Below are positions 1 to 23,503 of a stretch of DNA of 64,000 nt, in pieces (the first letter of the stretch is position 1; every line of letters begins with the position of its first letter). Under the pieces are notes generated by a model, which did not search any database, was not told where the DNA came from, and was given only the letters and a program-made list of their open reading frames with translations. Source of the stretch: Chloroflexota bacterium (lineage in GTDB: Bacteria; Chloroflexota; Limnocylindria; Limnocylindrales; CSP1-4); NCBI GenBank assembly GCA_021783095.1, contig JAJXUG010000014.1, forward strand, positions 1,895 through 65,894. The letters are read 5' to 3'. The position numbers and the translations under genes are program-made.

Positions 1-724
1 CGACGTCAACCGGCTGATCCCGCTGTACGCGATCGGCGTGTTCACCTCGTTCACGCTGAGCCAATCGGGCATGGTCCGCCACTGGTGGACGGAGCGCGGT
101 CCCGGCTGGCGCAGGAGCGCAGTGATCAACGGCGTCGGCGCAATGGTGACGGCCGTGGTCGTCGTGATCTTTGCGATCGCCAAGTTCGCCCTCGGGGCCT
201 GGATCGTGCTGATCATCGTGCCCGTCATGGTCGTCGGCATGCTCCTCATCGGCCGCGAGTACCGCAGCGCGCAGGTCGAGCTGCACGTCCGGCCGGAGTC
301 TGTGATCGGGCCGCCCAGCCGCGGCCAGCGCGTCATCGTGCCGATGCAGGACATGCGCCGCGACGCGATCCAGGCGATCAAGCTTGGCCTGACGATGTCC
401 AAGAGCGTAGTCGCCGTTCACGTGACCGACGACCTCCACGCCGCCGAGCAGTTCCGGGCGCGCTTCGAGGAGCAGGTCCGCGGCGTGGACCTCGTGATCG
501 TCGAATCGCCGTACCGCGAGTTCGTGCGGCCGCTGATCCGGTACCTCGAGTTCACCGCCGAGAAGGACCCGTCAGTGGTGACGATCGTGCTGATCCCGGA
601 ACGGATCATCAAGCACTGGTGGGAGCGCTTCCTCTACAACCAGAGCGCCTACCGGCTGCGCGATGCGCTCACCGGGCACCCCGGGATCATCGTCGCCGAC
701 GTGCCGTTCCGGCGGCCACGATAG
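1..724 (+). CDS. APC-family permease, C-terminal part (5' end outside window), ending in a cytoplasmic tail of about 130 aa
   Basis: The in-frame reading from nt 2 gives DVNRLIPLYAIGVFTSFTLSQSGMVRHWW followed by two hydrophobic helices. This is typical of the last TM helices of amino-acid/polyamine permeases. The stop is at 722-724. Confidence 0.55.
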   Translation, partial: DVNRLIPLYAIGVFTSFTLSQSGMVRHWWTERGPGWRRSAVINGVGAMVTAVVVVIFAIAKFALGAWIVLIIVPVMVVGMLLIGREYRSAQVELHVRPESVIGPPSRGQRVIVPMQDMRRDAIQAIKLGLTMSKSVVAVHVTDDLHAAEQFRARFEEQVRGVDLVIVESPYREFVRPLIRYLEFTAEKDPSVVTIVLIPERIIKHWWERFLYNQSAYRLRDALTGHPGIIVADVPFRRPR

Positions 725-733
725 GGGCGCAGT

Positions 734-988
734 GTGATGGACAGCCTGACCGAGACCGCCGTCCGCGACGAGATCGACCGCGAGCTGCGCCTGATCGATG
801 ACGCGATCGCGCTGATCCGGGCGGGCGCCGCCGTTCGCGTGACCGTGGCCAACCTTCGGCTCGGGTCGAGCGTCCTCGAGGCGGCGAGGGCGCGGGCGGG
901 CCTCCACCGCCTTCGCGTGACGGCCGACTGGACGCCCGGGGACGAGGTCTGCGCGCTGGTCGTCGAGGCGGGGCCGCGCGATGGCTGA
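734..988 (+). CDS. hypothetical protein (84 aa), first gene of a 3-gene translationally coupled operon
   Basis: ORF with a GTG/ATG start at 734/737. Its stop overlaps the start of the next gene (ATGGCTGA). No recognisable motif. Confidence 0.45.
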   Translation: MMDSLTETAVRDEIDRELRLIDDAIALIRAGAAVRVTVANLRLGSSVLEAARARAGLHRLRVTADWTPGDEVCALVVEAGPRDG

Positions 989-1376
989 CGTGCCAGGCGC
1001 GGAGGGCCCGGGACCCGTGCTGCTGATCGAGGACGAGGACGTCCTGCGCGGGGCGCTGGCCGACGCGCTCCGCCGCCGCGGCGTCGCGACGGTGGACGTG
1101 GGCTCGGCCGAGGACGCGGCCGAGCGGCTGGCCGGCGGCCTCCGACCGGGGCTGGTGTTCCTGGACCTCAACCTGCCCGGCCGGAGCGGTTGGGACCTCC
1201 TCCGCGACGAGCTGGCCCCGACGCCGGGGCGCCCGCCGATCGTCCTGCTCACAGCGCTCACGGTGGACCCGGTGCGGCTCCGGCAGTACGACGTGGTCGG
1301 CTACCTGCCCAAGCCGTTCGCCCTGACGACCTTCCTCGCCACCGCGCATCGGTTCCTCGAGGGCGCCGCCCGATGA
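981..1376 (+). CDS. stand-alone response-regulator receiver (CheY-like REC) protein
   Basis: LLIEDEDVLRGAL...VFLDLNLPGRSGWDLL...LPKPF has the acidic pocket, the phospho-acceptor Asp and the conserved Lys of REC domains. There is no output domain. Its stop overlaps the next start (ATGA). Confidence 0.75.
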   Translation: MADVPGAEGPGPVLLIEDEDVLRGALADALRRRGVATVDVGSAEDAAERLAGGLRPGLVFLDLNLPGRSGWDLLRDELAPTPGRPPIVLLTALTVDPVRLRQYDVVGYLPKPFALTTFLATAHRFLEGAAR

Positions 1377-2482
1377 ACGCCGCGCAAGCCGAGTCCACCC
1401 CGCGGCCGCGCGGGCGCCTGCACGTGTATGCCGGCATGTGCGAGGGCGCCGGCGCGACCAGCCGGATGCTCGAGGAGGGGGCGCGTCTGCAGGCGTCCGG
1501 CACGGACGTCGTCCTGGGCGTGCTGGCCGGCGCCCCGAGCCCGAGGATCGCGTCCCTGGCCGAGGGGTTCGAGTGCGTGGCGGGCGCGTCGGTGGCATAC
1601 CGCGGGGTGACCGTGGAGGGCCTCGATGTCGCGGCGATCCTGGCCCGGCTGCCGGACGTGGCGCTGGTGGACGAGCTCTGGCGTCAGCACGCGCCCGGCC
1701 TGCGCCCCGCCACTCGGTGGGCGGCGGTCGAGGCGATCCGCGACGCGGGGATCGACGTGGTGGCGACGCTGGACCTGGGGCACCTCGCCTCGCTCGCGGA
1801 CGCTGCCGCGACGATCACGGGCGTCGCCGTCCACGAGCGGCTGCCGGACGCCGTGCTCGACGGCGCCGAGGACGTGGAACTGGTTGACGTCAGCCCGTCA
1901 ACGCTCCGGCGGCGCATCGCCGACGGCCAGGTGGTGGATCCCGAGCGTGCCGCAACGCTGCTTGACCGCGTCTACACCGTCGCGAACCTCGAGGCGCTGC
2001 GCGAGCTCGCGCTCCGCAGCCTCACGCGGCGCGTGGAGCGGGAGATCAGCGCCGACGGCGCTCCCGACGCGAGGATGCCAGCTGGGGCGATGGTCGTGCC
2101 GGTTGACGGTGGCCCAGGTGGGCGCGACGCCATCCGGCGAGCGGCGGCCCTGGCCGCTGCGCTGGGCCTCCCGCTGATGGCGGTGGTGGCCGAGGCGGGG
2201 ACGGTGTGGGCAGCCGATGGCGGCAATCCGTTCTCGGCGGTTGACGACCTCGAGCTGGCCCGGGACCTGGGAGCGGAGGTCCTGCCGGTCGCGGCGGCCG
2301 ACGCGGGCGCCGCACTCGTCGCGGCGTCCCGGCGCCTGCGGGCGGGTCACGCCGTCCTGCCGGCACGAACCTCGTCGCTCGGAGACCGGCTGCGGGGACG
2401 ATCGCTGGTGGAGCGACTGGCCGCGGCCGAGCCGAGCCTGGAGCTGCACCTCGTCCCGATCCGGGGCGAGGGGGGCGGCTGA
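1373..2482 (+). CDS. KdpD N-terminal sensor domain plus Usp-like domain protein (KdpD-N, no kinase core)
   Basis: GRLHVYAGMCEGAGATSRMLEEG...DVVATLDLGHLASLADAAATITGVAVHERLPDAVLDGAEDVELVDVSPSTLRRRIADGQVV aligns with the KdpD N-terminal (Walker-like) domain of E. coli KdpD. The C-terminal half is Usp-like. There is no TM, HisKA or HATPase region. Confidence 0.8.
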   Translation: MNAAQAESTPRPRGRLHVYAGMCEGAGATSRMLEEGARLQASGTDVVLGVLAGAPSPRIASLAEGFECVAGASVAYRGVTVEGLDVAAILARLPDVALVDELWRQHAPGLRPATRWAAVEAIRDAGIDVVATLDLGHLASLADAAATITGVAVHERLPDAVLDGAEDVELVDVSPSTLRRRIADGQVVDPERAATLLDRVYTVANLEALRELALRSLTRRVEREISADGAPDARMPAGAMVVPVDGGPGGRDAIRRAAALAAALGLPLMAVVAEAGTVWAADGGNPFSAVDDLELARDLGAEVLPVAAADAGAALVAASRRLRAGHAVLPARTSSLGDRLRGRSLVERLAAAEPSLELHLVPIRGEGGG

Positions 2483-2542
2483 CCGCGGGAAGGAGCACCG
2501 GCGGGCTCGTGGCCGGCCGCGTGCCCGGGCGCCGGTCCGGCG

Positions 2543-3250
2543 CTACTCGCCCCGCGGCTCGCGGACCCGGTAGCCGACGCCCGGCTCGGCCGCCACGAGG
2601 TCCTTCGCGTCGCCGTCCGGGTCGGCCGCCGCGAGCTTGCGGCGGAGCCGCGACACGTACACGTGGAGGTAGTGGCCCTCGTCGCTGTACGCGGTCCCCC
2701 AGACCGCCCGCAGCAGGCGCCCGCGGGTCAGCACGCGCCCGGGCGCGGCGAGCATCTGCTTGAGCAGCTCGTACTCGCGCGGGGTGAGGTCGAGCTCGCG
2801 CTCCCGCACGGTCACGACGCGCCTGGCAGGATCGAGCGCGATGGAGCCGTTGCGCAGCACGCCCGACGACTCGCCCGCCGGGCCGCCCGCCCGGCGCAGG
2901 AGCGCCACGATCCGGGCCCGCACCTCGCCGATCCCGTACGGCTTGGTCACGTAGTCGTCGGCGCCGGCCTCGAGCGCCTCGATCTTGTCGGTCTCGCGGC
3001 CGCGCGCGGAGAGCACGAGGATCGGCGTGGCGGCCTCGCGCCGCACGCGGCGGATGACGGTGATCCCGTCGAGGTCCGGCAGTCCCAGGTCGAGCACGAT
3101 GAGGTCGGGCCGGGCTGCGTCCCAGGAGCGCAGGGCGGCGGCGGCGTCCTCGGCCTCGACCACCACGTACCCGTGGCCTGTCAGGTTCTGCGCCACTGCC
3201 TCGCGCGCGACGGGATCGTCCTCCACCAGCAGCACGTGCGCCCCGCTCAA
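2543..3250 (-). CDS. kdpE: OmpR-family response regulator, KdpE-like
   Basis: REC (VLLVEDDP...LIVLDLGLPDLDG...TKPY) plus a winged-helix trans_reg_C domain (LTPREYELL...YLHVYVSRLRRKL). Its start overlaps the stop of the upstream kinase gene by 4 nt (ATGA), as in kdpDE. Confidence 0.8.
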   Translation of the reverse strand: MSGAHVLLVEDDPVAREAVAQNLTGHGYVVVEAEDAAAALRSWDAARPDLIVLDLGLPDLDGITVIRRVRREAATPILVLSARGRETDKIEALEAGADDYVTKPYGIGEVRARIVALLRRAGGPAGESSGVLRNGSIALDPARRVVTVRERELDLTPREYELLKQMLAAPGRVLTRGRLLRAVWGTAYSDEGHYLHVYVSRLRRKLAAADPDGDAKDLVAAEPGVGYRVREPRGE

Positions 3251-4818
3251 CGGGCGTCCTCCTCGGGTGCCGCGGGCAGGCGGATCCGGACCCCGAGGCC
3301 GCCGAGGTCGCTCGCTTCGGCCGAGATCGTGCCACCCATCGCCTCGACGAACCCCTTCGCGATCGCGAGGCCGAGGCCCATGCCGTGGCGGCCCGCCTCC
3401 TGGCCGACCTGGACGCGGTAGAAGCGGTCGAACAGGTGCGGCAGCGCGTCCTCGGGGACGCCGGGTCCACCGTCGTCGACCGCGAGCACCACCCAGCCTG
3501 ACGCGGGCGTGTCCCCCGACACCCGGATCCGCGCCTCGGCGGGAGTGTGGGCCTCCGCGTTCTCGATCACGTTCCCCAGCGCCACGTCCGCGAGCACCGC
3601 GTCGGCAAGCACCGGCGGCAGGTCGTCGGGGACGGCCACCTCGATCGGGCGCCTCGACCCGGCCGACGGATGGTGCCGGAGCGTCGTCTCGACCAGCTCG
3701 GCGAGATCGTACGGCCGGAGGTCCGCGCGGATGCCCCCGGCCTGGATGCGCCCCATGTCGAGCAGCCCATTGACCAGGTCGCCGAGGCGCGCGCCCTCGG
3801 CGTCGATCTTCTCGGCGGTGGACCGGACGTCCGGCGCCTCGAGGCCCGGCGCGGCGTCGGCCAGGCCGCCGGCCAGGGCGCGGATGCTCGCGATCGGCGT
3901 CCGCAGGTCGTGGGAGACCGAATCGAGGATCGCGCCGCGCAGGGCGTCGCTCTGGCGCGCGACTTCAGCGGCGGTGAGCTCAGCGCGGAGCCTGTCGCGG
4001 CGGTGGGCAAGGGCGAGCTGGTCCGCGGCCAGGGCGAGGAGCCGGCGGGCGCCTCGACCCGGGCGCGGCTCGCCGGCGAGCCGGGTGGCGTGGATCCAGC
4101 CCGCCCGCTTGTCGCCGGCATCAATCGACACCAGATAATGGGCGGGCTCGCCCTCCTTGTCGCTCACCACGGTCGCGCCCGCGTGGAGGCGGAGCCACTC
4201 GGTGGTGTCGTCGGGGTCCGAGCGGACGAGCGTCCAGGGGCTGCCCGGGTCGGCTGGCGGGGTCAGGCCAGTCCACGCGACGGCGCGGCCCGGCCCATCG
4301 GCCACCTCCACCCAGACTTCGTCCATCTCGCCGTCGGCCTGGAGCCGGAGCGCGATGTCAGCCGCGGCCTCCTCGAACGTCGCGGCCATCGCCACGTCGC
4401 GGCTCATCGCCACCAGCGCCACGCCCTCGCGGACGCGGCGGTCCGCCTCCTCCGCACGGTCGCGCTGGAGCGACGCGAGGCGGCCGATCACCACGGCGAC
4501 GATGAGGAACAGCAGCAGGCTCAGCCACTCGGCGAAGTCCGAGACCGAGAGCGTGAACCGGGGCGACGTGAACAGGAAGTCGTAGACCACGAACGAGACC
4601 GCCGACGTCGCGACGGCGGCCCACGTGCCGAGCACGCTCGCCGCCAGCACGACCGCGACGAGGTAGACCGGCGACGCGTCCTGCACGCCGAGACCCTGCT
4701 CGAGGCCCACTGCCGCGAGCGTGGCCAGTGCGATGCCCAGCGCCACCAGACCGATGCGCAGGGCGAGTTCGCCTGCGGTGGCCTCGTCCCGTGTCGGGCC
4801 GCGGGGCGAGGCCGTCAT
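3247..4818 (-). CDS. sensor histidine kinase corresponding to the KdpD C-terminal half (4-TM, GAF-like, HisKA, HATPase)
   Basis: The TM block VYLVAVVLAASVLG...FVVYDFLFTSPRFTLSVSDFAEWLS matches the KdpD membrane domain. The H-box is SHDLRTPIASI, and G-boxes are present at the C-terminus. The alternative upstream start at 4905 is less likely. Confidence 0.8.
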   Translation of the reverse strand: MTASPRGPTRDEATAGELALRIGLVALGIALATLAAVGLEQGLGVQDASPVYLVAVVLAASVLGTWAAVATSAVSFVVYDFLFTSPRFTLSVSDFAEWLSLLLFLIVAVVIGRLASLQRDRAEEADRRVREGVALVAMSRDVAMAATFEEAAADIALRLQADGEMDEVWVEVADGPGRAVAWTGLTPPADPGSPWTLVRSDPDDTTEWLRLHAGATVVSDKEGEPAHYLVSIDAGDKRAGWIHATRLAGEPRPGRGARRLLALAADQLALAHRRDRLRAELTAAEVARQSDALRGAILDSVSHDLRTPIASIRALAGGLADAAPGLEAPDVRSTAEKIDAEGARLGDLVNGLLDMGRIQAGGIRADLRPYDLAELVETTLRHHPSAGSRRPIEVAVPDDLPPVLADAVLADVALGNVIENAEAHTPAEARIRVSGDTPASGWVVLAVDDGGPGVPEDALPHLFDRFYRVQVGQEAGRHGMGLGLAIAKGFVEAMGGTISAEASDLGGLGVRIRLPAAPEEDAR

Positions 4819-4977
4819 CTCCGGGATGCTCGCTGTGTTCCCACGGCTTCGCAGCCTAGCGCGACGTCGGCCGCCGCGCCGGGTCGCTGCGTCCTGCCGG
4901 CGCACTCATCAGGTGGGTGGTCAACGACCAACGCCCGCCGAGGAGCCTCGAAACGCGCGGATTCCTGCCGTGACACC

Positions 4978-4998
4978 CGCTGTACGAGTGTTACAGCG
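4978..4998. promoter_or_regulatory. 7-bp inverted repeat CGCTGTA-N7-TACAGCG (HAD terminator and/or operator upstream of kdpE-HK)
   Basis: A perfect palindrome read directly from the sequence, lying between the HAD 3' end and the kinase start. Confidence 0.35.
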
Positions 4999-5050
4999 AG
5001 TTTCCCGTCGCGAACCCGGATTGCACCCACCGCAGGGGTGCCCGGCGGGC

Positions 5051-5752
5051 TCAGCCCAGGGCGATCTCCGCGAACGACCGCATGTCCGGGCAGACCAGAT
5101 CGGGCGTCGCCTCGGCCGGGGGCGTGGCGCCGAAGCCCGGCTTGTCGTGGCGCCGGTCGATCCAGACCGTCGTCATGCCCAGCGCCTTGGCCGGGACGTG
5201 GTCGTGGAACAGGCTCTGGGCCACGTGGAGGATCCGCTCGCGGGGCACGTCCACGCGAGCGAACAGCGCCTCGAAGTTGGCCGGGCGCGGCTTGTACCCG
5301 CGGGCCTGCTGGGCGGTGACGACCCAGTCGAAGTCCACGCCGAGCCGTCGGTTCGAGCCCGCGAACAGGTCGTCGTCGCAGTTGGTCAGCACGCCGAGCC
5401 TGAAGCGCGCCTTGAGCTTGCGCAGCGCGGCGGCCGAGTCGGCGAACGCCGGCCAGTCGCCCACCGAGGCCGAGAAGGCGGCGATGGCCGCGTCGCCCGG
5501 GTCAACGCCCAGGCCCGCGCAGACGCCCTGCGCCGCGCTCGCCAGCACCTCGCGGTACGTGCGATACACGCCGCGCTCGATCGCCTCCTCGTGCTTCGCG
5601 TAGAGCGCGAGGAGCTCGTCGTCGGTGGCGGTCACGTCATCGCGCGAGAGCACCAGCTGGAACGCGTTGAGGATCCCGCGCTCCCAGTCGATGAGCGTGC
5701 CGTAGCAGTCGAAGGTGAGGGCGTCGAACTGGCTGAAGTCGATGGGGCTCAT
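5051..5752 (-). CDS. haloacid dehalogenase type II (HAD superfamily hydrolase)
   Basis: The N-terminal FDCYGTLIDWE nucleophile motif and overall L-2-haloacid dehalogenase-like sequence. Confidence 0.8.
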   Translation of the reverse strand: MSPIDFSQFDALTFDCYGTLIDWERGILNAFQLVLSRDDVTATDDELLALYAKHEEAIERGVYRTYREVLASAAQGVCAGLGVDPGDAAIAAFSASVGDWPAFADSAAALRKLKARFRLGVLTNCDDDLFAGSNRRLGVDFDWVVTAQQARGYKPRPANFEALFARVDVPRERILHVAQSLFHDHVPAKALGMTTVWIDRRHDKPGFGATPPAEATPDLVCPDMRSFAEIALG

Positions 5753-9360: not shown

Positions 9361-10821
9361 CTAGCCGGTAGCGGCCGCGGGGAACGGCGCGCTCGGGATC
9401 GCCTCGGCGAGGCGCAGGATCGTCGCGAGCGAGCGGTCCACGTCCTCGGTCGTGGTCCGCCAGCCCGAGACGGAGATCCGCATCACGCGCTGTCCGTGCC
9501 AGACCGAGCCGCCCAGCCACAGCGTCCCATCGCCCTGGACCGCGGCAACCACCGCGCCCGTCCGCGCGTCGGCGGCCGAACCGTCACCCGAGGGATCGTC
9601 GAAGCGGACGAGCACCTGGTTGAGCACGACGTCGTTGACCACGCGGATGCCCAGCGATGAAGGGGCCGCCGCGAGGCCGGCCGCGAACCGGAGTGCATGG
9701 TCGCAGGTGCGCCCGACCATCGCCGCCACGCCCTCGCGCCCCAGCGAGCGGATCGCCGCCCACACGGCGAACCCGCGCGCCCTCCGCGACGACTCGGCGA
9801 CCCAGTTGTACGGGTCCCGCTCGCCGCCCGCCGTCTCCACGTAGTACGCCGCGCCGAGCGTCATCGCCGCGTGGTGCGCGGCCGGACGTGCGCAGAACAC
9901 CAGGCCCGAGTCGTACGGGACGTTGAGCCACTTGTGCGCGTCGGTCGTCCAGGAGTCGGCCCGCTCGACGCCGGCAAGCAGGTGGCGCCTCGCCGGGTCG
10001 GCCGAGGCCCACAGCCCGAACGCTCCGTCGACGTGGAGCCAGCCGCCGCTGGCGCGGACGAGGTCCGTGATCTCCGGCAGGGGGTCGAACGCACCGGTGT
10101 TCACGTTGCCGGCCTGGGCGCAGACCAACGCGGGCCGGTCCATCCCGGCCAGCATCTCGGCGAGCGCATCTGCGCGCATCCGGCCCTGCCGGTCCGTCGG
10201 GACGCGGCGCACCCGGTCGCGGCCCATGCCCAGCATCTGGAGCGCGGCGTGGATGGTGACGTGCGCCTCCTCGCCCACCACCACCGGCACGTCGGGTGCG
10301 CTGAACAGCCCGTTGCGCTCGACATCCCAGCCGGCCTGCTCCAGCAGTGCGTGGCGAGCCGCGGCGAGCGCCGTGAACGACGCCATCGTGGCGCCGGTCG
10401 TGAACCCCGCCGAGGCCTCGGCGGGCAGGCCGAGCAGCTCTGCCGCCCACCGCGCCGCCACCTCCTCGGCGACGGCCGCCGCCGGCCCCATGACGTACAT
10501 CGCGGCGTTCTGGTCCCAGACGCTCGCGAGCCAGTCTGCGCCCACCGCGGCCGGCAGCCCGCCGCCGACGACGAAGCCGAAGTACCGCGGGCCCGCGCTC
10601 CGGACCATCCCCCCGGACGCGCCCGCCGCCAGCGCGTCGATCGTGGCCACCGGGTCCTTGCCCGCCTCCGGCAGCGGCCCCCCAAGGCGCTCGCGCAGTT
10701 CGGCCACGGAGGCAGTTGGCCCCACCCGGCCAGCGTCGAGGCCGGCCGCCCACGACCGGGCCAGGTCCGCCGCGCGGGCGAGGGCGGCGTCGGTGGCGCT
10801 GCGCGCGGTCTCGTGGTCCAT
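9361..10821 (-). CDS. group II PLP-dependent amino-acid decarboxylase (aspartate/diaminobutyrate/aromatic-amino-acid decarboxylase family)
   Basis: The DAHKWLNVPYDSG PLP-lysine motif and the length and architecture of group II decarboxylases. A GGGAG RBS lies 6 nt before the ATG at 10821. Confidence 0.85.
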   Translation of the reverse strand: MDHETARSATDAALARAADLARSWAAGLDAGRVGPTASVAELRERLGGPLPEAGKDPVATIDALAAGASGGMVRSAGPRYFGFVVGGGLPAAVGADWLASVWDQNAAMYVMGPAAAVAEEVAARWAAELLGLPAEASAGFTTGATMASFTALAAARHALLEQAGWDVERNGLFSAPDVPVVVGEEAHVTIHAALQMLGMGRDRVRRVPTDRQGRMRADALAEMLAGMDRPALVCAQAGNVNTGAFDPLPEITDLVRASGGWLHVDGAFGLWASADPARRHLLAGVERADSWTTDAHKWLNVPYDSGLVFCARPAAHHAAMTLGAAYYVETAGGERDPYNWVAESSRRARGFAVWAAIRSLGREGVAAMVGRTCDHALRFAAGLAAAPSSLGIRVVNDVVLNQVLVRFDDPSGDGSAADARTGAVVAAVQGDGTLWLGGSVWHGQRVMRISVSGWRTTTEDVDRSLATILRLAEAIPSAPFPAAATG

Positions 10822-11128
10822 CTTCAGCTCCCGCTCTGGCCATCGCCGGGTCACCATCGCCGGGTCAGCCTCGTGATCATCGCGCGGACGCCCCGAACGC
10901 GCCTGCTCGGGCTGGGCCCGGGCGCGCCGCGCCCGGGACGACTGATCGGCGTGCGCTCGAGGCTGCCAATCGTCCCCGCGCGTCCGCGCCAACGGCGCTG
11001 TCCGCGCTCCGCGAGCGGGGTATGCTCAGCCCATTGACCGCTGCGGGCGGATGCCCGCGGGCTCGCCGGCCCAAGACGCGGGACGGTAGGGTCCACCAGC
11101 GCGAGGCACTTCGAGGAGGCAGTTCGCG

Positions 11129-11980
11129 ATGCCCCGTATCGTCCGAGGCGCACTCCTGCAGGCTACCTGGACCGGCGACAAGGAGTCGATGATCCAGAAG
11201 CACGAGCAGTACGTGCACCAGGCGAAGCAGCAGGGTGCCCAGTTCATGCTCTTCCAGGAGCTGTTCTACGGGCCCTACTTCTGTCAGGTCCAGGACAAGA
11301 AGTACTACTCCTACACCGAGTACATCCCCGACGGACCCACCACCAAGCGCTTCCAGGCGCTGGCGAAGGAGACCGGGATGGTCCTCGTCGTGCCGATGTA
11401 CGAGGAGGACAGCCAGACCACCGGGATCTACTACAACACGGCCGCGGTGATCGACGCCGACGGGACGTACCTGGGCAAGTACCGCAAGACCCACATCCCG
11501 CACGTCGAGGGGTTCTGGGAGAAGTTCTACTTCCGCCCCGGAAACCTGGGCTACCCGGTGTTCCAGACGGCCGTGGGCAAGATCGGCGTCTACATCTGCT
11601 ACGACCGCCACTTCCCGGAGGGCGCCCGCGCGCTCGGGCTCAACGGCGCCGAGATCGTCCTGATCCCGTCGGCCACCTCGCGCGGCCTGTCCGAGTACCT
11701 GTGGCGCGTCGAGCAGGTCAGCCACTCGCTGGCCAACGGCTACTTCATCGGGACCATCAATCGGGTGGGCATCGAGAAGGAGATCGGGCCGGACGACTTC
11801 TACGGCCAGAGCTACTTCGTGGACCCGCTGGGCCAGTTCGTCGGCGCGGTCGGCAGCCCCTACGACGAGGAGCTGATCATCCGCGACCTCGACCTCGACG
11901 TGATCTCCAAGGTCCGCCAGACGTGGCAGTTCTACCGCGATCGACGGCCGGAGATGTACGGGGACCTGGTCAAGCCGTAG
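11129..11980 (+). CDS. beta-ureidopropionase / N-carbamoyl-amino-acid amidohydrolase (nitrilase/CN-hydrolase superfamily)
   Basis: CN-hydrolase triad context (E in FQELF, K in GKYRKTH, C in VYICYDRHFPE) and overall beta-alanine synthase-like sequence. Confidence 0.8.
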   Translation: MPRIVRGALLQATWTGDKESMIQKHEQYVHQAKQQGAQFMLFQELFYGPYFCQVQDKKYYSYTEYIPDGPTTKRFQALAKETGMVLVVPMYEEDSQTTGIYYNTAAVIDADGTYLGKYRKTHIPHVEGFWEKFYFRPGNLGYPVFQTAVGKIGVYICYDRHFPEGARALGLNGAEIVLIPSATSRGLSEYLWRVEQVSHSLANGYFIGTINRVGIEKEIGPDDFYGQSYFVDPLGQFVGAVGSPYDEELIIRDLDLDVISKVRQTWQFYRDRRPEMYGDLVKP

Positions 11981-12046
11981 TAGGCTGACGCCGGCTGCTC
12001 GGGCGAAGGGGTTCGCGAGCGGTCGGGCATCGGGTATGATCCCGCG

Positions 12047-12080
12047 CGGCTCGGCTGCCAGGAGGAGGGCAGCCGAGCCG
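12047..12080 (+). promoter_or_regulatory. 13-bp perfect stem-loop CGGCTCGGCTGCC-(AGGAGGAG)-GGCAGCCGAGCCG between the ureidopropionase and LLM genes
   Basis: Read directly from the sequence. The loop is a Shine-Dalgarno-like purine run. It may be an intercistronic terminator, attenuator or processing site. Confidence 0.45.
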
Positions 12081-12115
12081 TTCGATTCTCCGGGTCGTCC
12101 CGGACGGAGGGTCAG

Positions 12116-13111
12116 ATGCAGTTCGGGTTCACGCTCAAACCGGACCACACGATCGAGCGGACGCTCGCGTTGACCCGCCAGGCCGAGGCGGCCGGCTTCG
12201 GCTACGGCTGGCTGTTCGATTCCCACGTGCTGTGGCGGGACCCGTACCCGCTGCTCACGCTCATGGCGCAGGCCACCACGGACATGCACCTGGGCACCTG
12301 CGTCACCAACCCTGCCACACGCGAGCCGACGGTCACGGCGTCGGCGCTCGCGGTGCTCCAGGAGCTCTCCGGCGGGCGGATGGAGCTGGGCATCGGGCGC
12401 GGCGACTCGTCGCGCCGGGTGCTGGGCAAGCAGCCGACGTCGATGCGGGACCTCGAGCAGGCCGTGCACGTGATCCGCGCCCTGACCGAGGGCCACTCGA
12501 TCGAGTTCGAGGGTGCCATGCTCGAGCTGCCCTGGGTTGGCGCCGGGCACCAGCTGCCGGTGTGGATCGCGGGCTACGGCCCGGTCGCGCTCAAGCTCAC
12601 CGGGCGGATCGCGGACGGCGCCATGCTCCAGATCGGCGACCCGGACCTCATCCGGTGGTTCGTCTCCCAGGTTCGCGCGTCGGCCGAGGCGTCGGGCCGG
12701 GACCCGAACGCTGTGAAGGTGATGGCCGCGGCGCCCGCGCACGTGGGCGACCTGGCCGACGGCCGCGACCGCACCCGCTGGTTCCCGGCACTCGTGTCGA
12801 ACCACGTGGTCGACCTCGTGAACAAGTACCCCCGCGAGGACCTGCCGCAGGAGCTGACGGCCTACATCCGGAACCGCGAGGGCTACGACTACCTCCACCA
12901 CGCCGAGGTGGGCTCCTCGAACGCGTCGTTCGTCTCGGACGAGATCGTCGACCGCTTCTGCCTGGTCGGGCCGCCTGAAGCGCACCTCCAGCGGCTCCGG
13001 GAGCTGGCCGACGCCGGCGTGGACCAGTTCAACCTCTACCTGATGAACGGGAACGAGGAGGAGCAGCTCGAGCTCTACGGGCGCGAGATCATCCCTGCGC
13101 TGCGCAGCTGA
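12116..13111 (+). CDS. LLM-class (luciferase-like) flavin/F420-dependent oxidoreductase
   Basis: TIM-barrel luciferase-like monooxygenase family sequence throughout (GWLFDSH, ELGIGRGDS, VWIAGYGP). A GGAGGG RBS is present. Confidence 0.85.
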   Translation: MQFGFTLKPDHTIERTLALTRQAEAAGFGYGWLFDSHVLWRDPYPLLTLMAQATTDMHLGTCVTNPATREPTVTASALAVLQELSGGRMELGIGRGDSSRRVLGKQPTSMRDLEQAVHVIRALTEGHSIEFEGAMLELPWVGAGHQLPVWIAGYGPVALKLTGRIADGAMLQIGDPDLIRWFVSQVRASAEASGRDPNAVKVMAAAPAHVGDLADGRDRTRWFPALVSNHVVDLVNKYPREDLPQELTAYIRNREGYDYLHHAEVGSSNASFVSDEIVDRFCLVGPPEAHLQRLRELADAGVDQFNLYLMNGNEEEQLELYGREIIPALRS

Positions 13112-13267
13112 CAGGGAAAGGCGCGCCGAGCGGCGCGGTCATCGCCCGGCGTGCGCCCGCCTTACCGCCTGCCTGACGGCCCACCGCACCGGAGCCACCT
13201 CGTACTGGGCGAGAGGTACTCTCGACCCCAGAACCCCCGCAGCCGACAATCGCGGCGGAGGTACGCC

Positions 13268-13456
13268 ATGTCAGCGCTGTCCAGACTCCGCCGCCCCGAT
13301 CCTCGCTGGGAGGAGGAGGGGCCGGCCGCGCGCCGCGAGTACCGGCGCCGCCGCACGCGCGAGATGGCGTCGTTCGCGACCTCGCTCGTGGCGGCCGTGA
13401 TGGCGGTGGCCGCCCTCGCGCTCCGGCTCGGGAGTGCCCTGCTCAGCCGCGGATAG
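13268..13456 (+). CDS. small tail-anchored membrane protein (62 aa), hypothetical
   Basis: A GGAGG RBS lies 7 nt upstream of the ATG. The N-terminus is Arg-rich and there is a single C-terminal TM helix (FATSLVAAVMAVAALALRLG). Confidence 0.4.
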   Translation: MSALSRLRRPDPRWEEEGPAARREYRRRRTREMASFATSLVAAVMAVAALALRLGSALLSRG

Positions 13457-13562
13457 CGCAAACCTCCTCCGAGGCGTCGTGCCCGGGTCTACGATGGGCT
13501 GACACGCGCCACCCCGTCCGACGGGTGCAGCCGGCGGGGCATCCCAACGCCAAGGAGGAAGG

Positions 13563-14954
13563 ATGCGCACCCTGTTCGCCAACGGCACGATCGTCACTGC
13601 CGATGGCTCCTACCGAGCGGACGTGCTCGTCGAGGGCGAGACGATCGTGCAGATCGGTGCCGGCCTCGCAGCCTCGGTCACGGCCGACGAGGTGATCGAC
13701 GCTGGCGGCAAGTACGTGATCCCCGGCGGCATCGACGCCCACACGCACATGAAGCTGCCGTTCGGCGGCACCTACGCGAAGGACGACTTCGAGACCGGCA
13801 CCCGCGCCGCTGCGTTCGGCGGGACGACGACCATCGTGGACTTCGCGGTGCAGTCGAAGGGCGAGACGCTGCACCAGGGCCTCGACAAGTGGTTCGCGCT
13901 GGCCGAGGGCATGGCCGTCGCCGACTACGGCTTCCACATGATCATGTCCGACGTCACGGACGCCTCGCTGCCCGAGATGGACCAGCTGGTCGACGAGGGC
14001 GTCCCGGACTTCAAGCTGTTCACCGCGTACCCGGGCGTCTTCTACTCGCCCGACGACCACATCTTCCGCGCCCTCAAGCAGACCGCCAAGAACGGCGGCC
14101 TGATCCTGATGCACGCCGAGAACGGGCCGGTCATCGACGTCCTGGCGGCCGACCAGGTCGCGAAGGGGGTCACCGACCCGATCGGGCACGGCCTGGCGCG
14201 CGACTCCCGGATGGAGGGCGAGGCGACGAACCGCGTCATCCGGATGGCGGAGGTCGCCGGCGCGCCCGTCTACTTCGTCCACATGTCGGCCAAGGAGGCG
14301 CTCAAGGCGCTCGTCGAGGCCCGCGGCCGCGGCGCGATGGCCTGGGCGGAGACGTGCCCGCAGTACCTGTACCTCACGCTCGACGACCTCGGTCACGGGT
14401 TCGAGGGCGCCAAGTTCGTCTGCTCGCCGCCCCTCCGGACGCCCGACCACGCCGTCGAGCTCTGGAACGCGCTCAAGCGCGACGACATCGCGCTGGTCGG
14501 CACCGACCACTGCCCGTTCGACTTCCACGGGCAGAAGGAGATGGGCCGCGGCGACTTCCGCAAGATCCCCAACGGCCTGCCGGGCGTCGAGGAGCGGGTC
14601 GACCTGATGCACCAGGCCGTCGCCGACGGCAAGCTCTCCAAGGAGCGCTGGGTCGAGGTCGTGTCGACCGCGCCCGCCAAGATGTTCGGGATGTACCCGC
14701 GGAAGGGCGCCATCGCGGTCGGGTCCGACGCGGACATCGTCGTCTACGATCCGGCCCGCACGCACGTGCTCTCGGCCAAGACGCACCACATGGACGTCGA
14801 CTACTCGTGCTACGAGGGCATGACGGTCCGGGGCGGCTCGGACATCGTGATGTCCCGCGGCTCGGTCATCGTCCGCAACGGCGAGTTCACCGGCCGCAAG
14901 GGCGCCGGCAAGTTCATCAAGCGGTCGCGCGCCACGTTCCCGCGCATCAGCTAG
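13563..14954 (+). CDS. dihydropyrimidinase / D-hydantoinase (cyclic amidohydrolase)
   Basis: The GGIDAHTHM metal-binding motif, the carboxylated-Lys region and the full-length hydantoinase architecture. An AAGGAGGAAGG RBS is present. Confidence 0.85.
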   Translation: MRTLFANGTIVTADGSYRADVLVEGETIVQIGAGLAASVTADEVIDAGGKYVIPGGIDAHTHMKLPFGGTYAKDDFETGTRAAAFGGTTTIVDFAVQSKGETLHQGLDKWFALAEGMAVADYGFHMIMSDVTDASLPEMDQLVDEGVPDFKLFTAYPGVFYSPDDHIFRALKQTAKNGGLILMHAENGPVIDVLAADQVAKGVTDPIGHGLARDSRMEGEATNRVIRMAEVAGAPVYFVHMSAKEALKALVEARGRGAMAWAETCPQYLYLTLDDLGHGFEGAKFVCSPPLRTPDHAVELWNALKRDDIALVGTDHCPFDFHGQKEMGRGDFRKIPNGLPGVEERVDLMHQAVADGKLSKERWVEVVSTAPAKMFGMYPRKGAIAVGSDADIVVYDPARTHVLSAKTHHMDVDYSCYEGMTVRGGSDIVMSRGSVIVRNGEFTGRKGAGKFIKRSRATFPRIS

Positions 14955-14968
14955 GGACGCTGCCTCTC

Positions 14969-15001
14969 ACGACCCCCGTGGGCCCGCCCCGCGGGGGTCG
15001 T
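14969..15001. terminator. bidirectional stem-loop ACGACCCCCG-N12-CGGGGGTCGT between convergent genes
   Basis: A perfect 10-bp inverted repeat read from the sequence. Confidence 0.5.
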
Positions 15002-15047
15002 TCCGTGTCGCGCGCCGGATCGCCGCGTCGCAGCCAGCGCCGGTCCC

Positions 15048-15458
15048 TCAGCTCACGCCGACGAGGTCCTCCGCGCGCTGGCCCAAGGCCTGGCGCGCGG
15101 TGGCCACGTCGTCCACGCAGAAGGCCCATTCCGCGAAGCCCGGGCGCTCCCCCGCCTTCACCACGCCCGTCACGCTCACGCCGGCCCGCGCGAGGCGGTC
15201 GGCCACGTCCCCGAAGGCGCCGGGCCGGTCGCGAACCTCGACCATGAGCGGCTCGCCCTCGATGAACGGGTGGCCGAGGCCCTTGATGACGCGCCGCGCA
15301 GCGTCATCGTCGGTGGTGGTGACGAACAGGCACTCGAGGGGCCCGCTGCCGACGCACGCGACGTGGGCGATCTCGATGCTGAAGGCCTCGAAGGCCTTGA
15401 TGAGGCGAGTCAGCTCGCCCGGGTGGTTGTCGAGCTGGACGACGAATTGGCGGGCCAT
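15048..15458 (-). CDS. ACT-domain protein (136 aa)
   Basis: A tandem ACT-like beta-alpha-beta-beta-alpha-beta pattern. GGAGAGG RBS. It is the C-terminal part of a much longer artefactual ORF (15048..16454). Confidence 0.65.
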   Translation of the reverse strand: MARQFVVQLDNHPGELTRLIKAFEAFSIEIAHVACVGSGPLECLFVTTTDDDAARRVIKGLGHPFIEGEPLMVEVRDRPGAFGDVADRLARAGVSVTGVVKAGERPGFAEWAFCVDDVATARQALGQRAEDLVGVS

Positions 15459-15617
15459 CTGCGCACCTCTCCGGCGGGCCTGGCGGCCCGGCATGACGGT
15501 GCCATCCTCTCGGCACGCCGTCGGCCGGGCCAGTGCCCTTCGGGGAAGTCCAGACCCGCCACCCGGCGCCGCGGCGGGTAGATTGGACGGCGACGAAGCC
15601 GCACTCGGAGCCGCGCA

Positions 15618-15932
15618 ATGTTCGTGACCCTCGTCCACTGCCACGTCAAGGCGGATGCCGTTGACGCCTTCATCGATGCCTGCCGCTCGAACCACGAGGG
15701 GTCGGTGCGCGAGCCGGGCAACGTCAGGTTCGACGTCCTCCAGCTCGCCGAGGACCCAACGCGCTTCGTCCTGTACGAGTGGTATGTCGACGAGGCGGCC
15801 GCCAAGGCCCACAAGGACACGCCGCACTACGCTGCCTGGCGCGAGTCGACAGCGGACATGTTCGAGGAGCCGCGCTACGGCGTCCGCTACGTCGGCCTGG
15901 CACCGCTGGTCCCGCCGACCCTGGAGGCCTGA
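15618..15932 (+). CDS. antibiotic-biosynthesis-monooxygenase (ABM) family protein
   Basis: A 104-aa ferredoxin-like fold with the ABM signature (VTLVHCHVK...FVLYEWYVDEAAAKAH). Confidence 0.75.
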   Translation: MFVTLVHCHVKADAVDAFIDACRSNHEGSVREPGNVRFDVLQLAEDPTRFVLYEWYVDEAAAKAHKDTPHYAAWRESTADMFEEPRYGVRYVGLAPLVPPTLEA

Positions 15933-15975
15933 TGCAGCCCGCGGACAGTCCCAGGACCGCGCTTGAGCGGTCGAG

Positions 15976-17193
15976 GTGAGCGCCGGCGAGGGCGGCATCG
16001 GCCAGGTGGCCGTCGGCCGGCTGCCGCGGATCACCTTCGGCGCCGGGGTCGCCGCGAGGCTGCCGTCGATCGTGGCGGGGCACGGCCGTCGGGCGCTGCT
16101 CGTCCGGGGCACGCACTCGCTCGCCGCCGGCGGGCGACTGGAGCCGCTCCGGGACGCCCTCGCCGATGCGGGCGTCGAGCTCGCGGGCGAAGCTGCCGTC
16201 AGCGGCGAGCCCTCCCCTGCCCTGGTCGACGGGATCGCGGCCGCGCACCGCGGCGACGGGATCGACGTCGTCCTCGGGATCGGCGGCGGCTCGGCGCTCG
16301 ACACCGCCAAGGCCGTCTCGGGCCTGCTCCGCGTGGACGCTCCTGTCACGGACTTCCTCGAGGGCCTGCCAGGCGCCCGCCCCTGGCCGGGCCCGTCCGT
16401 GCCGCTGGTCGCCGTGCCCACCACGGCCGGCACCGGCAGCGAGGCCACGCGCAACGCCGTGATCAGCGAACGCGGCCCCGCCGGCTACAAGCGCTCGTTC
16501 CGCGACGAGCGGCTCGTCCCGGCCGACGCCGTCGTGGACCCGGACCTGCTCGCCGGGCTCCCCGCGGACCGCATCGCCGAGAACGGGATGGACGCGCTCG
16601 CGCAGCTGCTCGAGTCGTACGTGTCGCTGCGGGCGGGCGCGTTCACCGACGCGCTGGCGATCGCCGGGCTTGCCGCCGCGCGGGACGGCCTCCTCGCCTG
16701 GCACGCGGATCCCGAGGGTCCCGGAGCCCCGGCCGCCCGCGAGCGGATGGCGTGGGCCGCGCTCCTGTCGGGGATCTGCCTGGCGAACGCCGGGCTGGGC
16801 GCGGTGCACGGGCTCGCGTCGCCGCTGGGCGCCCAGTTCCCCGTCCCGCACGGTGCCGCCTGCGGCGCGACGATGGCACCGGTCACTGCGGCCAACGTCG
16901 CGGCGCTCGAGGCGCGGCAGCCCGACAGCCCGGCCCTCCGACGCTACGCGGTCCTGGGCCGGCTGCTCGCGCGCCTGCCCGACACCACGCCCGACTCGGC
17001 GGCGCGGTCGGCGCTGGTCGACACCGTCGGGACCTGGACCCGTGTCCTCGGCGTGCCGGGCCTCGCCTCGTGGGGCGTCGTCGAGGCGGACATCCCGGCG
17101 GTCGTCGCGGACGCCCGGGGCAGCTCGATGCGCACGAACCCGATCGTGCTGACCGATGACGAGCTGGCCGCGGTCCTCGCGGCCTCGATGTAG
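15976..17193 (+). CDS. iron-containing (group III) alcohol dehydrogenase
   Basis: The Fe-ADH motifs GGGSALDTAK and the histidine cluster. GTG start. Confidence 0.85.
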   Translation: MSAGEGGIGQVAVGRLPRITFGAGVAARLPSIVAGHGRRALLVRGTHSLAAGGRLEPLRDALADAGVELAGEAAVSGEPSPALVDGIAAAHRGDGIDVVLGIGGGSALDTAKAVSGLLRVDAPVTDFLEGLPGARPWPGPSVPLVAVPTTAGTGSEATRNAVISERGPAGYKRSFRDERLVPADAVVDPDLLAGLPADRIAENGMDALAQLLESYVSLRAGAFTDALAIAGLAAARDGLLAWHADPEGPGAPAARERMAWAALLSGICLANAGLGAVHGLASPLGAQFPVPHGAACGATMAPVTAANVAALEARQPDSPALRRYAVLGRLLARLPDTTPDSAARSALVDTVGTWTRVLGVPGLASWGVVEADIPAVVADARGSSMRTNPIVLTDDELAAVLAASM

Positions 17194-17200
17194 CTGGCAG

Positions 17201-18121
17201 CTAAAGGCCCTCGGCGGCGACCCCGTCGTCGTCGTCGGAAGCGATCGCCGTGCGGACCTCCGCGGCGGCGAACCCGAGCACGGCGATCGCGCACAGGATG
17301 GCGATCCCGATGGCGAGCAGCTGCCCAACCGACAGGGAGCCGATCACCGCCGGGTCGCGCCACGTCGCGGCGACCACCGCCCGCGCCGTCGCCCAGAGCC
17401 CGACAACCAGGAAGAACGACGCCCCGTTCCGCTTGGCGAAGACGCCCAGCGCCATGAGCCACCAGGCCACGCCGCCGACGAGCAGCGTCGCCACCGCCTC
17501 CATCGCCTGCGACGGCCAGGACGGGATCTCGGGCGCGAGCGAACCCCACGGCCCGCCGCCCAGGTAGCGCGTAGCGAGCGAGATGTCGCTGGGCACGCCC
17601 TGCCCGGAGCCGCCGAGCAGCATCGCGAGCTTGAGCAGCCCGAGGAGCAGCAGCAGCGGCAGGGCCAGCGCGTGGAGCCAGCGGCCCAGCGGCGCGCCCA
17701 GCAGCAGCGCCACGATCGACCCCGTGATCGCCCCGCCCACCACGCCCATCGAGAGCTCCAGGCCGCCCTTGGAGATGTCGACCAGCGCGCCCGGGTCGGC
17801 CTGGTAGTAGGCGAGGTGGAGGAGCGCGTACCCCAGCCGCCCGCCCACCACGGCGCCCGGCATCGCGGCCACGGCGATGCACAGCAGGTCGTCGGCGCGC
17901 AGGTGGTTGGGCCCGTCATCCTCGGGGTCGGGCGACGGCCAGTCGGCCGGGACGGACATGTCAACCGGTGTCCAGCGGCCCGCCAGCGCCGCGAACAGCA
18001 GCGCGAGGAGCACGGCGGCCGCCCCCGCCATCGTCTCCCACCGCACCGTGAGCCCGGCGAGCGTGACGGTGGCCGGGAACGTGAAGGTGATCAGCGCGGG
18101 GATCGACGCAAGGGGCACCAC
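17201..18121 (-). CDS. Lgt-like membrane protein (divergent paralog of prolipoprotein diacylglyceryl transferase with degenerate signature)
   Basis: Colinear similarity to Lgt (GGRLGYALL, DISKGGLELSMGVVGGAI, WPSQAMEA), but the G-R-x-G-N-F-x-N-x-E signature is replaced by LLGGSGQG. Start uncertain. Confidence 0.55.
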   Translation of the reverse strand: MVPLASIPALITFTFPATVTLAGLTVRWETMAGAAAVLLALLFAALAGRWTPVDMSVPADWPSPDPEDDGPNHLRADDLLCIAVAAMPGAVVGGRLGYALLHLAYYQADPGALVDISKGGLELSMGVVGGAITGSIVALLLGAPLGRWLHALALPLLLLLGLLKLAMLLGGSGQGVPSDISLATRYLGGGPWGSLAPEIPSWPSQAMEAVATLLVGGVAWWLMALGVFAKRNGASFFLVVGLWATARAVVAATWRDPAVIGSLSVGQLLAIGIAILCAIAVLGFAAAEVRTAIASDDDDGVAAEGL

Positions 18122-18295
18122 GAGGCCGGAGTCTACCCTGCCGGGGCGGCGGCGAATGGGCCGAGCCCGGTGAGCCAGCGGAATGCAGCGGTGCCCGGAG
18201 ATCGTCGAGGGTCACGACCCCCAGGCGCGCACGATCGCCTGCGGTGGTTCCAGGGGGCAACGGATTCGCGGCGGCTGCTGCCCGTGGATCTGGGG

Positions 18296-18340
18296 GAATC
18301 GAGAAGCCCCCGGCCCGTGCGGGCCGGGGGCTTCGTGTCG
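18296..18340 (-). terminator. hairpin GAAGCCCCCGGCCCG/CGGGCCGGGGGCTTC 3' of the subtilase gene (copy 1 of a repeated element)
   Basis: A 15-bp perfect inverted repeat, preceded by the conserved flank ATCGA. Confidence 0.55.
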
Positions 18341-18358
18341 ACCGTCGCGAGGCGGCGG

Positions 18359-20584: not shown

Positions 20585-20740
20585 CCGGGCACACCTGGCG
20601 CGCCCGTTCCCCGGCGGCGATGTGGGCCAGCCTACCCCGTCCGGGCCATGCCAAGACCCCCCGAATGGACACGCCTGTTGCTCGGAGGCAACGGTTCCAG
20701 CGTGCGGAGGCTCACGCCGTCCCGGCGCCGGTCGCGGGTA

Positions 20741-20786
20741 TCGAGAAGCCCCCGACCCGCGTGGGACGGGGGCTTCGGGCCGCTGA
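20741..20786 (-). terminator. hairpin GAAGCCCCCG/CGGGGGCTTC 3' of mdh (copy 2 of the repeated element)
   Basis: Same stem and same ATCGAGAAGCCCCC flank as the element at 18296. Confidence 0.5.
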
Positions 20787-20806
20787 GCGGACTCGCCGGG
20801 CGAGCC

Positions 20807-23503
<2,697 letters not shown>

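Follow-up and report, generated by a model that had tools for sequence, protein, structure and literature searches.

Which transporter is served by a KdpD/KdpE-type system whose sensor is encoded in two pieces, and which has no kdpFABC pump genes beside it? Few two-component systems are as widespread or as well studied as KdpD/KdpE, and the question arose for a 64,000-nucleotide (nt) stretch of Chloroflexota DNA (contig JAJXUG010000014.1, positions 1,895 to 65,894; hereafter the window). An earlier reading of this stretch, here called the original prediction, suggested that the split KdpD, a KdpE-like regulator and an extra stand-alone receiver form a branched phosphorelay, or that the soluble KdpD part (KdpD-N) modulates the kinase in trans, perhaps with kdpFABC outside the window as the target. 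Our analysis points to a different transporter for potassium (K+). By homology, the gene that the window start cuts off codes for a KimA-type K+ importer, and it shares an operon with a small protein, the receiver and KdpD-N. By gene order, the five regulator genes are set 2, the kimA-linked copy of a duplicated Kdp-type cassette. We consider it rather probable that this cassette works in the way proposed below for the histidine kinase (HK2), the response regulator (RR2), the receiver (REC) with the small protein, and KdpD-N. All genes named in the original prediction were recovered where it had placed them (ORF, open reading frame; aa, amino acids):

1..724, plus strand: 3' part of kimA, the last ~240 codons, with the final transmembrane helices and the cytosolic C-terminal domain; KimA/KUP-type K+ importer
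737..988, plus strand: small protein, family unassigned, 83 aa (84 aa from GTG 734)
981..1376, plus strand: stand-alone REC protein, 131 aa; PF00072, E 4.9e-15
1373..2482, plus strand: KdpD-N/Usp protein, 369 aa; PF02702, E 3.7e-62
2483..2542, no strand: convergent gap of 60 nt between the two operons
2543..3250, minus strand: RR2, KdpE-like OmpR-family response regulator, 235 aa; REC and Trans_reg_C
3247..4818, minus strand: HK2 histidine kinase, 523 aa; PF13493 (DUF4118), PF00512 (HisKA), PF02518 (HATPase)
4819..5050, minus strand: region 5' of the HK2-RR2 operon

The kimA operon and the split KdpD

Only the last 240 residues of the transporter lie in the window, and its membership in the KimA family was read on contig L005, by full-length homology and the 8 K+-coordinating residues. 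Contig L007 differs from the window by 6 mismatches in 8959 nt, and L005 and L006 are near-identical too, so that L005-L007 represent the window's strain. L005 carries a complete kimA of 669 aa (L005:624-2633). The encoded permease matched KimA of Bacillus subtilis (PDB 6s3k) over residues 62-666 with an E-value of 1.3e-133, and all 8 K+-coordinating residues were kept (D36, Y43, D117, T121, S125, T230, E233 and Y377), the Y377 equivalent falling in the first codons of the window. The small ORF begins 12 nt past the end of kimA and shares 8 nt with the start of REC (ATGGCTGA at 981-988); REC in turn overlaps kdpD-N by ATGA at 1373-1376. The plus-strand operon is thus kimA-small-REC-kdpD-N, with the overlaps from which translational coupling had been predicted and with conserved partners. 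On the minus strand, the HK2 stop and the RR2 start overlap by 4 nt (3247-3250), again as predicted. The two operons had been described as divergently encoded; they converge, with stops at 2482 (plus) and 2543 (minus). Note that the gene calls of relatives (523-525 aa) favour ATG 4818 as the HK2 start within a maximal ORF of 3247-4905, and that the small-protein start in relatives is ATG 737, not GTG 734.

The only tblastn matches of Escherichia coli KdpD in the window were two separate stretches, residues 15-236 and 409-886, on opposite strands. These stretches, the Pfam domains and the intact state of both genes bear out the proposed split of KdpD into a soluble KdpD-N/Usp protein and a membrane kinase. 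KdpD-N residues 8-363 aligned to positions 17-374 of the 895 positions of the NCBIfam KdpD model (PRK10490), the Usp region included, and KdpD-N matched the KdpD N-domain structure (PDB 2r8r) with an E-value of 7e-39. HK2 is 30% identical to E. coli KdpD residues 409-886, contains the H-box 'SHDLRTP' and is composed of a DUF4118 membrane domain, a GAF-equivalent region, HisKA and HATPase. The kinase half had been said to combine membrane, GAF and kinase domains. The membrane and kinase domains are present, but Pfam detected no GAF domain in HK2, the region being only homologous to its counterpart in E. coli KdpD. RR2 is 43% identical to E. coli KdpE, and its best NCBIfam family was KdpE (PRK10529; 195.7 bits, cutoff 325). 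KdpD-N and HK2 scored 205.5 and 172.8 bits against PRK10490, below the cutoff of 1123 for full-length KdpD, and KdpD-N scored 179.4 bits over residues 12-278 against NF038185, the NCBIfam model 'KdpD-like non-kinase potassium sensor' (cutoff 550).

We found no tblastn match to E. coli KdpA, KdpB, KdpC or KdpF within the 64-kb window, in agreement with the original prediction. A simple scan of the 2483-2542 gap returned no canonical intrinsic terminator, consensus scans for promoters and terminators over 2300-5200 found nothing, and no sigma-70-like consensus was seen in 4819-5050. The region has a G+C content of ~72-76%, and G+C at third codon positions of the small ORF is 0.93. Compared with orthologues in two relatives, all five genes had ratios of nonsynonymous to synonymous substitution rates (dN/dS) of 0.09-0.29 at dS of 0.4-1.0 (small protein, 0.15-0.21; REC, 0.15-0.28; KdpD-N, 0.26-0.28; RR2, 0.09-0.16; HK2, 0.21-0.29). 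Judged by these ratios, all five regulator genes are real and under purifying selection, and are not chance ORFs.

Duplicated cassettes and their promoters in Limnocylindria

A scan with the REC alignment, covering one genome per GTDB species, retrieved ~20 close loci with 39-93% identity. Their labels were all of metagenome-assembled genomes (MAGs) of Chloroflexi, Chloroflexia, Chloroflexota or Candidatus Limnocylindria; the remaining matches were generic receivers from other phyla. The organism is a Limnocylindria-like soil member of the Chloroflexota. An actinobacterial origin is ruled out, all 20 closest loci being Chloroflexota/Limnocylindria MAGs; the impression of an 'actinobacterium-like genome' in the original prediction came from the high G+C content.

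We mapped the synteny of twelve query proteins over 27 related loci. The class-wide order, found in ~20 species, is HK(DUF4118)-RR-small-REC-kdp(F)ABC-KdpD-N on one strand, while in 2 loci the HK-RR pair lies convergently downstream instead. In one sublineage, which includes the 4.15-Mb chromosome OY969796.1, L003, L089 and a contig from the Joint Genome Institute (JGI), the kdp set is directly followed by kimA-small2-REC2-KdpD-N2, and in most of its members the kimA cassette is followed by a convergent RR2-HK2 pair. Two complete sets adjoin in L002/L090, and likewise in L003 and the JGI contig as far upstream as these loci reach. The first set of L090 is complete from HK1 (525 aa) to KdpD-N1, so that such a genome has two full sets of five regulators. 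The overlaps and gene order of the kimA cassette are conserved in at least 5 lineages, and the 8-nt small/REC overlap is kept in both kimA and kdp sets. The two sets have diverged in sequence, with 28% identity between their small proteins and 46% between their REC proteins. We propose that the ancestral regulator set flanks kdpFABC, and that in this sublineage all five regulators would have been copied, the second set becoming linked to a KimA-type K+/H+ symporter.

Two further arrangements were observed. L012:7197-11639 is regulator-only, with HK-RR-small-REC followed directly by KdpD-N and no kdpABC between or after within the contig. In L032:3063-16000, an HK-RR pair, a direct-repeat box and a KimA-like permease directly precede HK-RR-small-REC-kdpABC-KdpD-N. 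This locus has two kinase/regulator pairs and one small/REC/KdpD-N set, and may represent an intermediate stage of the duplication.

Inspection of the flanking sequence for kdpFABC, a check suggested in the original prediction, gave a divided answer. In relatives, kdpFABC is present 3-9 kb upstream of the position equivalent to the window genes, as a branched relay to this pump would have it. However, wherever kdpFABC occurs, a separate HK1, RR1, small1, REC1 and a KdpD-N1 with intact Walker A motif accompany it, whereas the window genes are co-operonic with kimA. The prediction had also left room for a target that is upstream or not kdp at all; the second part fits the operon partner kimA, and the upstream kdpFABC of relatives is already provided with a complete regulator set.

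In the strain of the window, the kdp side is reduced. A 30-codon ORF located 334 nt upstream of kimA in L005-L007 corresponds to residues 1-30 of KdpD-N1 (E 7e-7), its stop lying just before the Walker A region. L005:200-286 aligned to the 5' end of a relative's kdpD-N1 (82% identity, E 8.5e-19) and L005:397-640 to the relative's kimA promoter (E 1e-36). The spacing between these two elements is 1109 nt in the relative versus 110 nt in this strain, about 1 kb of kdpD-N1 having been lost. Upstream of the remnant we found no kdpC and three tandem copies of a 39-nt G+C-rich repeat; repeats and remnant together (L005:1-290) correspond to ~1.9-2.5 kb upstream of window position 1. The 39-nt repeat, which is absent from the window, resembles an array preceding HK1 in the relative L090 (3150-3617, E 3e-5), and all assemblies of this strain end at it. 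The deletion junction had no exact match in JGI metagenomes. Two points are firm: kdpD-N1 has an internal deletion, and no kdpC adjoins it. That the whole block from HK1 to kdpC was deleted is likely. Because the neighbouring kdpD-N1 is a deletion remnant, the window set probably serves KimA alone in this strain.

Candidate operators were found upstream of the transporters. All kimA upstream regions contain the direct repeat TGTTGAG-N4-TGTTGAG, 150-225 nt before the start codon. A looser pattern, TTGAG-N6-TTGAG, has a single copy in each of 18 K+ loci and three copies in L032; none of the remaining 73 loci compared, among them all ~60 unrelated ones, contains it. The copies located lie upstream of kimA or of a small-REC-kdp operon. 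In two-cassette genomes, the kdp promoter has CCTTAGG-N4-TCTT[GT]AGG instead (kimA box, TGTTGAGGCCTTGTTGAG; kdp box, CCTTAGGGGTTCTTGAGG). The box type follows the regulator clade, with CTT[TC]AGG accompanying the RR1 clade and TTGAG the others. In a neighbour-joining tree without support values, RR2 grouped with the kimA-adjacent regulators of L008, L026 and L032. These correlations are consistent with two insulated KdpE-type circuits, RR2 being assigned to kimA. The looser pattern does not occur in the 64-kb window, and neither does TGTTGAG-N4-TGTTGAG itself, even at up to 2 mismatches. The absence of the latter from 4819-5050 hints that the HK2-RR2 operon is not autoregulated through this box.

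These results also bear on the branched relay to kdpFABC. Cross-talk is possible, given that the direct repeats of the two promoter types are related (TT[GT]AG), L089 lacks an adjacent second HK-RR pair, and REC keeps all of its phospho-acceptor residues. In contrast, RR2 groups with kimA-adjacent regulators, the kimA and kdp boxes differ within the same genomes, and the kdpD-N1 of this strain is a remnant not preceded by kdpC. We consider it unlikely that the window genes form one relay directed at kdpFABC.

Side observations were made on the same upstream regions. The RR-small intergenic regions of ~20 loci (e.g. L003:570-580 and L010:9730-9740) contain a conserved CCTCTTGG ~35-45 nt downstream of the direct-repeat box, and in kdp cassettes the start codon of the small protein is immediately preceded by (C/G)TTGG(G); both may be promoter or ribosome-binding elements of the class. 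The kimA leader of ~170 nt between the TGTTGAG repeat and the kimA start (L005:430-620 and its equivalents in L002, L003, L009 and L089) contains conserved blocks (GAGCGTGGGCC..TGCGTATGGT, a GCGGGC...GCCCGC stem, GACGTCA and CGGAGCCCA) that had no Rfam match, and could be a promoter plus structured leader. No Rfam family, riboswitches included, reached its gathering score in L003, L005, L010, L026 or L008, nothing relevant was detected in the kimA leader stretch L005:380-700 at E≤10, ydaO-yuaA included, and no Rfam family was matched near kimA or kdp.

Further downstream, the sampled part of the window (9361-25066) encodes ordinary metabolism and housekeeping: a pyridoxal phosphate-dependent decarboxylase, a CN hydrolase, a luciferase-like monooxygenase, an amidohydrolase, an iron-containing alcohol dehydrogenase and Lgt, as well as an S8 subtilase with PA domain, a lactate/malate dehydrogenase, an ATP-dependent phosphoenolpyruvate carboxykinase and a protein with N-terminal HAAS domain. 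Among the proteins scanned in this part there was no diadenylate cyclase and no further K+ gene.

KdpD-N, the receiver and the small protein

The N-domain of E. coli KdpD has recently been recognised as an atypical serine kinase (ASK) acting on the Kdp pump, where it phosphorylates S162 of KdpB (Silberberg et al., PMC11018627). Phosphorylation requires G36/K37/T38 of the Walker A motif (G-x5-GKT), D109/E110 and the adenine-binding pair W39/R190, and is lost in the G36A/K37A/T38C mutant (PMC11018627). The Walker A motif reads GACAGVGKT in E. coli and GMAPGVGKT[YF] in the kdp-linked paralogues, but GMCEGAGAT in the window, and the loss of the lysine is also evident in the alignment to 2r8r. We examined the kimA-linked clade, consisting of the window protein, its orthologues in L002 and L003, and P0002-P0012 (53-100% identity). 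The lysine is replaced by Ala or Thr in 12/12 members examined, whereas the kdp-linked paralogues keep GKT. The clade consensus is GMC[EVAD]GAG[AT]T with DELW[RH][EQ], compared to DELAHTN in the kdp-linked proteins; W39 is replaced (by Ser in the window), and the 'ETHGR' and 'AHTN' motifs are altered. Nor is the KdpB substrate of an ASK encoded alongside: there is no kdpB in the window, the partner is kimA, and no kdpC lies 5' of the kdpD-N1 remnant. By analogy with the E. coli triple mutant, the kimA-linked KdpD-N is probably no longer an ATP-dependent serine kinase of the E. coli type, its Walker A lysine being lost. Because the substitution is clade-wide and the gene is under purifying selection, we read the loss of the lysine as a change of function and not as decay.

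The Usp domain of c-di-AMP (cyclic di-AMP)-binding KdpD proteins in Firmicutes carries the motif (A/G/C)-x-S-x-S-x2-N-(Y/F) in the beta1-alpha1 loop (PMC8214093). This motif is absent from the Usp region of KdpD-N, although a different binding mode is conceivable. The loop reads 'VPVDGGPGGRDAI' in the window and 'VLVDE..A..RAV' in kdp-linked proteins, neither of which contains S-x-S or N-Y/F.

The small protein had no match in Pfam or NCBIfam. A word-seeded search retrieved homologues in 91 clusters at 90% identity, and an exhaustive profile search 474 representatives at 50% identity, of which 209 had E≤1e-10; nearly all are 80-95 aa long. A hidden Markov model of the family matched every K+ locus, always directly 5' of the REC gene, none of the unrelated loci, and the window once. 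The AlphaFold2 (AF2) model has a predicted local distance difference test score (pLDDT) of 84.5 and the order alpha-beta-alpha-beta-beta. A Foldseek search of this model against the PDB returned nothing significant (best 2guk, E 0.13). A histidine phosphotransfer (Hpt)-like role was considered and ruled out because the family has no conserved histidine.

In the stand-alone REC, the phospho-acceptor D62 and the acidic D18 are invariant, and T91 (Ser in paralogues), the lysine of 'YLPKPF' and the aromatic Y of 'GYLPKPF' are kept in intact copies. REC thus looks phosphorylatable, and because all phospho-acceptor residues are retained, the branching of a phosphorelay to REC, as suggested in the original prediction, appears plausible. 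Small protein and REC also occur as a natural fusion, in clusters P0312 and P0354 (91% identical to each other, several short-read contigs), in the order HK-RR-fusion-KimA-like permease. A third fusion, on a long-read contig with a fragmented kdpA, may be a frameshift artefact. Two side observations concern the same module. P0445, which is closely homologous to the stand-alone REC, carries the label Candidatus Dormibacteraeota, and the small/REC module may therefore reach beyond the Chloroflexota. Furthermore, kdp cassettes contain a conserved 29-codon ORF between REC and kdpF (L003:1240-1329, L002:1155-1244, L089:1112-1201 and L091:9639-9728), which would be a second tiny peptide besides KdpF.

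What might receiver and small protein act on? For the kdp set, the notion that the REC/small module reconnects the detached serine kinase to the membrane K+ sensor is an attractive idea, because the motif for the usual alternative input, c-di-AMP, is missing. For the kimA set, a corresponding scheme would be post-translational control of KimA, in which the state of the kinase is passed to phosphorylated REC with its 84-aa partner, and from there to a KdpD-N pseudokinase that gates the transporter. If this were true, a KdpDE-type system would control transporter activity besides transcription, and REC/small would reconnect the split-off KdpD N-domain to K+ sensing across the Limnocylindria, KdpFABC included. 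Small protein and REC occur without KdpD-N in L009 and L092, however, which makes the kinase, the regulator or the transporter a likelier main partner for them than KdpD-N. By the same distribution, KdpD-N is an accessory part, dispensable for the kimA cassette. We regard gating of KimA through KdpD-N as improbable.

Alternatively, the P-loop of the kimA-linked KdpD-N may be non-canonical yet functional, the protein still working as a kinase or as a sensor that binds nucleotides, and phosphorylating or gating KimA or another target, e.g. REC. It retains the Walker B D-E ('VDELW') and the R190 equivalent, dN/dS is ~0.27, and the motif that stands in place of Walker A, G-x5-G[AT]T, shows clade-wide conservation and is not random. 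To our knowledge, however, KimA has no KdpB-type A domain and no TGES serine. Moreover, the E. coli triple mutant in the corresponding motif loses KdpB phosphorylation, W39, 'ETHGR' and 'AHTN' are changed too, and L009 and L092 manage without KdpD-N. Retained kinase or nucleotide-sensing activity is for these reasons quite unlikely. That the whole cassette is a decaying duplicate with no current function, as the lost catalytic residue, the absence of KdpD-N from two kimA cassettes and the neighbouring kdpD-N1 remnant might suggest, is very improbable, given five intact ORFs with dN/dS of 0.09-0.29, overlaps and gene order kept in several lineages and a Walker A substitution that is clade-wide and not sporadic; the 'decayed duplicates' named as a counter-scenario in the original prediction were thus not found.

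Proposed working and known systems

We favour the interpretation that the window holds a KimA-linked duplicate of a Kdp-type cassette. HK2 would sense K+ status and phosphorylate RR2. Phosphorylated RR2 would bind TGTTGAG-N4-TGTTGAG ~150-225 nt 5' of kimA and drive kimA-small-REC-kdpD-N. The co-induced REC, with the small protein, would be a second phospho-acceptor of the kinase, and may drain phosphate as negative feedback or relay the state of the kinase to the transporter or to KdpD-N. The lysine-less KdpD-N would be a non-catalytic regulatory or scaffold subunit.

Several points weigh against this interpretation. All evidence comes from metagenome sequence, of organisms represented here by metagenome assemblies only. 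The promoter of kimA, with its repeat, is located outside the window and known from the near-identical contigs, and the loss of the whole kdp cassette rests partly on the short repeat match at which these contigs end. RR2 was placed in a neighbour-joining tree that has no support values. L089 has both cassettes and no HK2-RR2 pair downstream, so that RR1 might serve both promoters. Two kimA loci with small/REC lack KdpD-N, and the KdpD-N of the kimA cassette may be drifting. In the AF2 model of the small-REC fusion both domains fold well, but the linker is disordered and the orientation is not fixed (predicted TM-score 0.54). Finally, the alpha1 'specificity' residues of REC and RR displayed no clear cassette-specific pattern.

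The locus is of relevance to both K+ homeostasis and two-component signalling. A receiver and an unannotated ~84-aa protein accompany split KdpD throughout a major soil bacterial class, which suggests a testable route by which the K+ sensor in the membrane could still reach an N-domain no longer attached to it. The regulator set appears transferable, all five proteins having been duplicated and linked to another K+ transporter with an OmpR-type candidate operator in place of the Bacillus riboswitch. A natural loss-of-motif variant under purifying selection points to a role of the KdpD N-domain beyond KdpB phosphorylation. The paralogous pairs, with two kinases, two regulators and two operator types per genome, offer a natural example of insulation between duplicated circuits. 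Split KdpD, stand-alone KdpD-N/Usp proteins and KimA are already known. The small/REC module, the duplication of the regulator set onto kimA and the lysine-less KdpD-N clade appear undescribed in the literature searched, where no paper was found on kdp in Limnocylindria or on a single-domain receiver as a partner of KdpD.

How does the cassette compare with known systems? Single-domain receivers of the CheY type serve as phosphate sinks or connectors, and small feedback proteins exist, such as MgrB for PhoQ. The window module resembles these in combining a REC with complete active site and a small protein, co-transcribed with target genes of a two-component system. Their proposed role is by analogy, no relation in sequence or fold to CheY-type sinks or MgrB having been found. 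E. coli KdpD/KdpE has the same domains (N-domain, Usp-equivalent, DUF4118, GAF-equivalent, HisKA and HATPase) and a regulator of the same OmpR family, with identities of 41% for KdpD-N, 30% for HK2 and 43% for RR2, and with kinase and regulator genes likewise overlapping by 4 nt. In contrast to E. coli, the domains in the window are divided between two polypeptides on opposite strands, the N-domain protein is without the Walker A lysine, the cassette accompanies kimA and not kdpFABC, two extra conserved partners (REC and the 84-aa protein) are present, and the proteins score below the NCBIfam equivalog cutoffs.

Split KdpD had been noted as known from cyanobacteria. It is indeed known, but is not special to this group: the class, with a KdpD/Usp serine kinase and a transmembrane/GAF/DHpCA kinase on separate chains, has been catalogued across prokaryotes (PMC11018627), and stand-alone KdpD-N proteins form >600 clusters. 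KdpD/Usp-only proteins are also described, e.g. Deinococcus geothermalis KdpD (PMC11018627). The available portion of that catalogue mentions no REC or small-protein partners of split KdpD, and states that the split and short classes keep the serine-kinase motifs 'in almost all versions' (PMC11018627). The window proteins have the features given there for the class, a stand-alone KdpD-N/Usp protein of ~370 aa, a separate DUF4118 kinase and a KdpE-like regulator, and differ from it in that the kimA-linked clade has lost the Walker A lysine. With B. subtilis KimA (YdaO), the transporter shares full-length homology, including the cytosolic C-terminal domain, and the complete K+ site (8/8). However, B. 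subtilis kimA is under the control of a c-di-AMP riboswitch, whereas kimA of the type found in the window, without an Rfam match, has an OmpR-type direct repeat and an adjacent KdpDE-like system.

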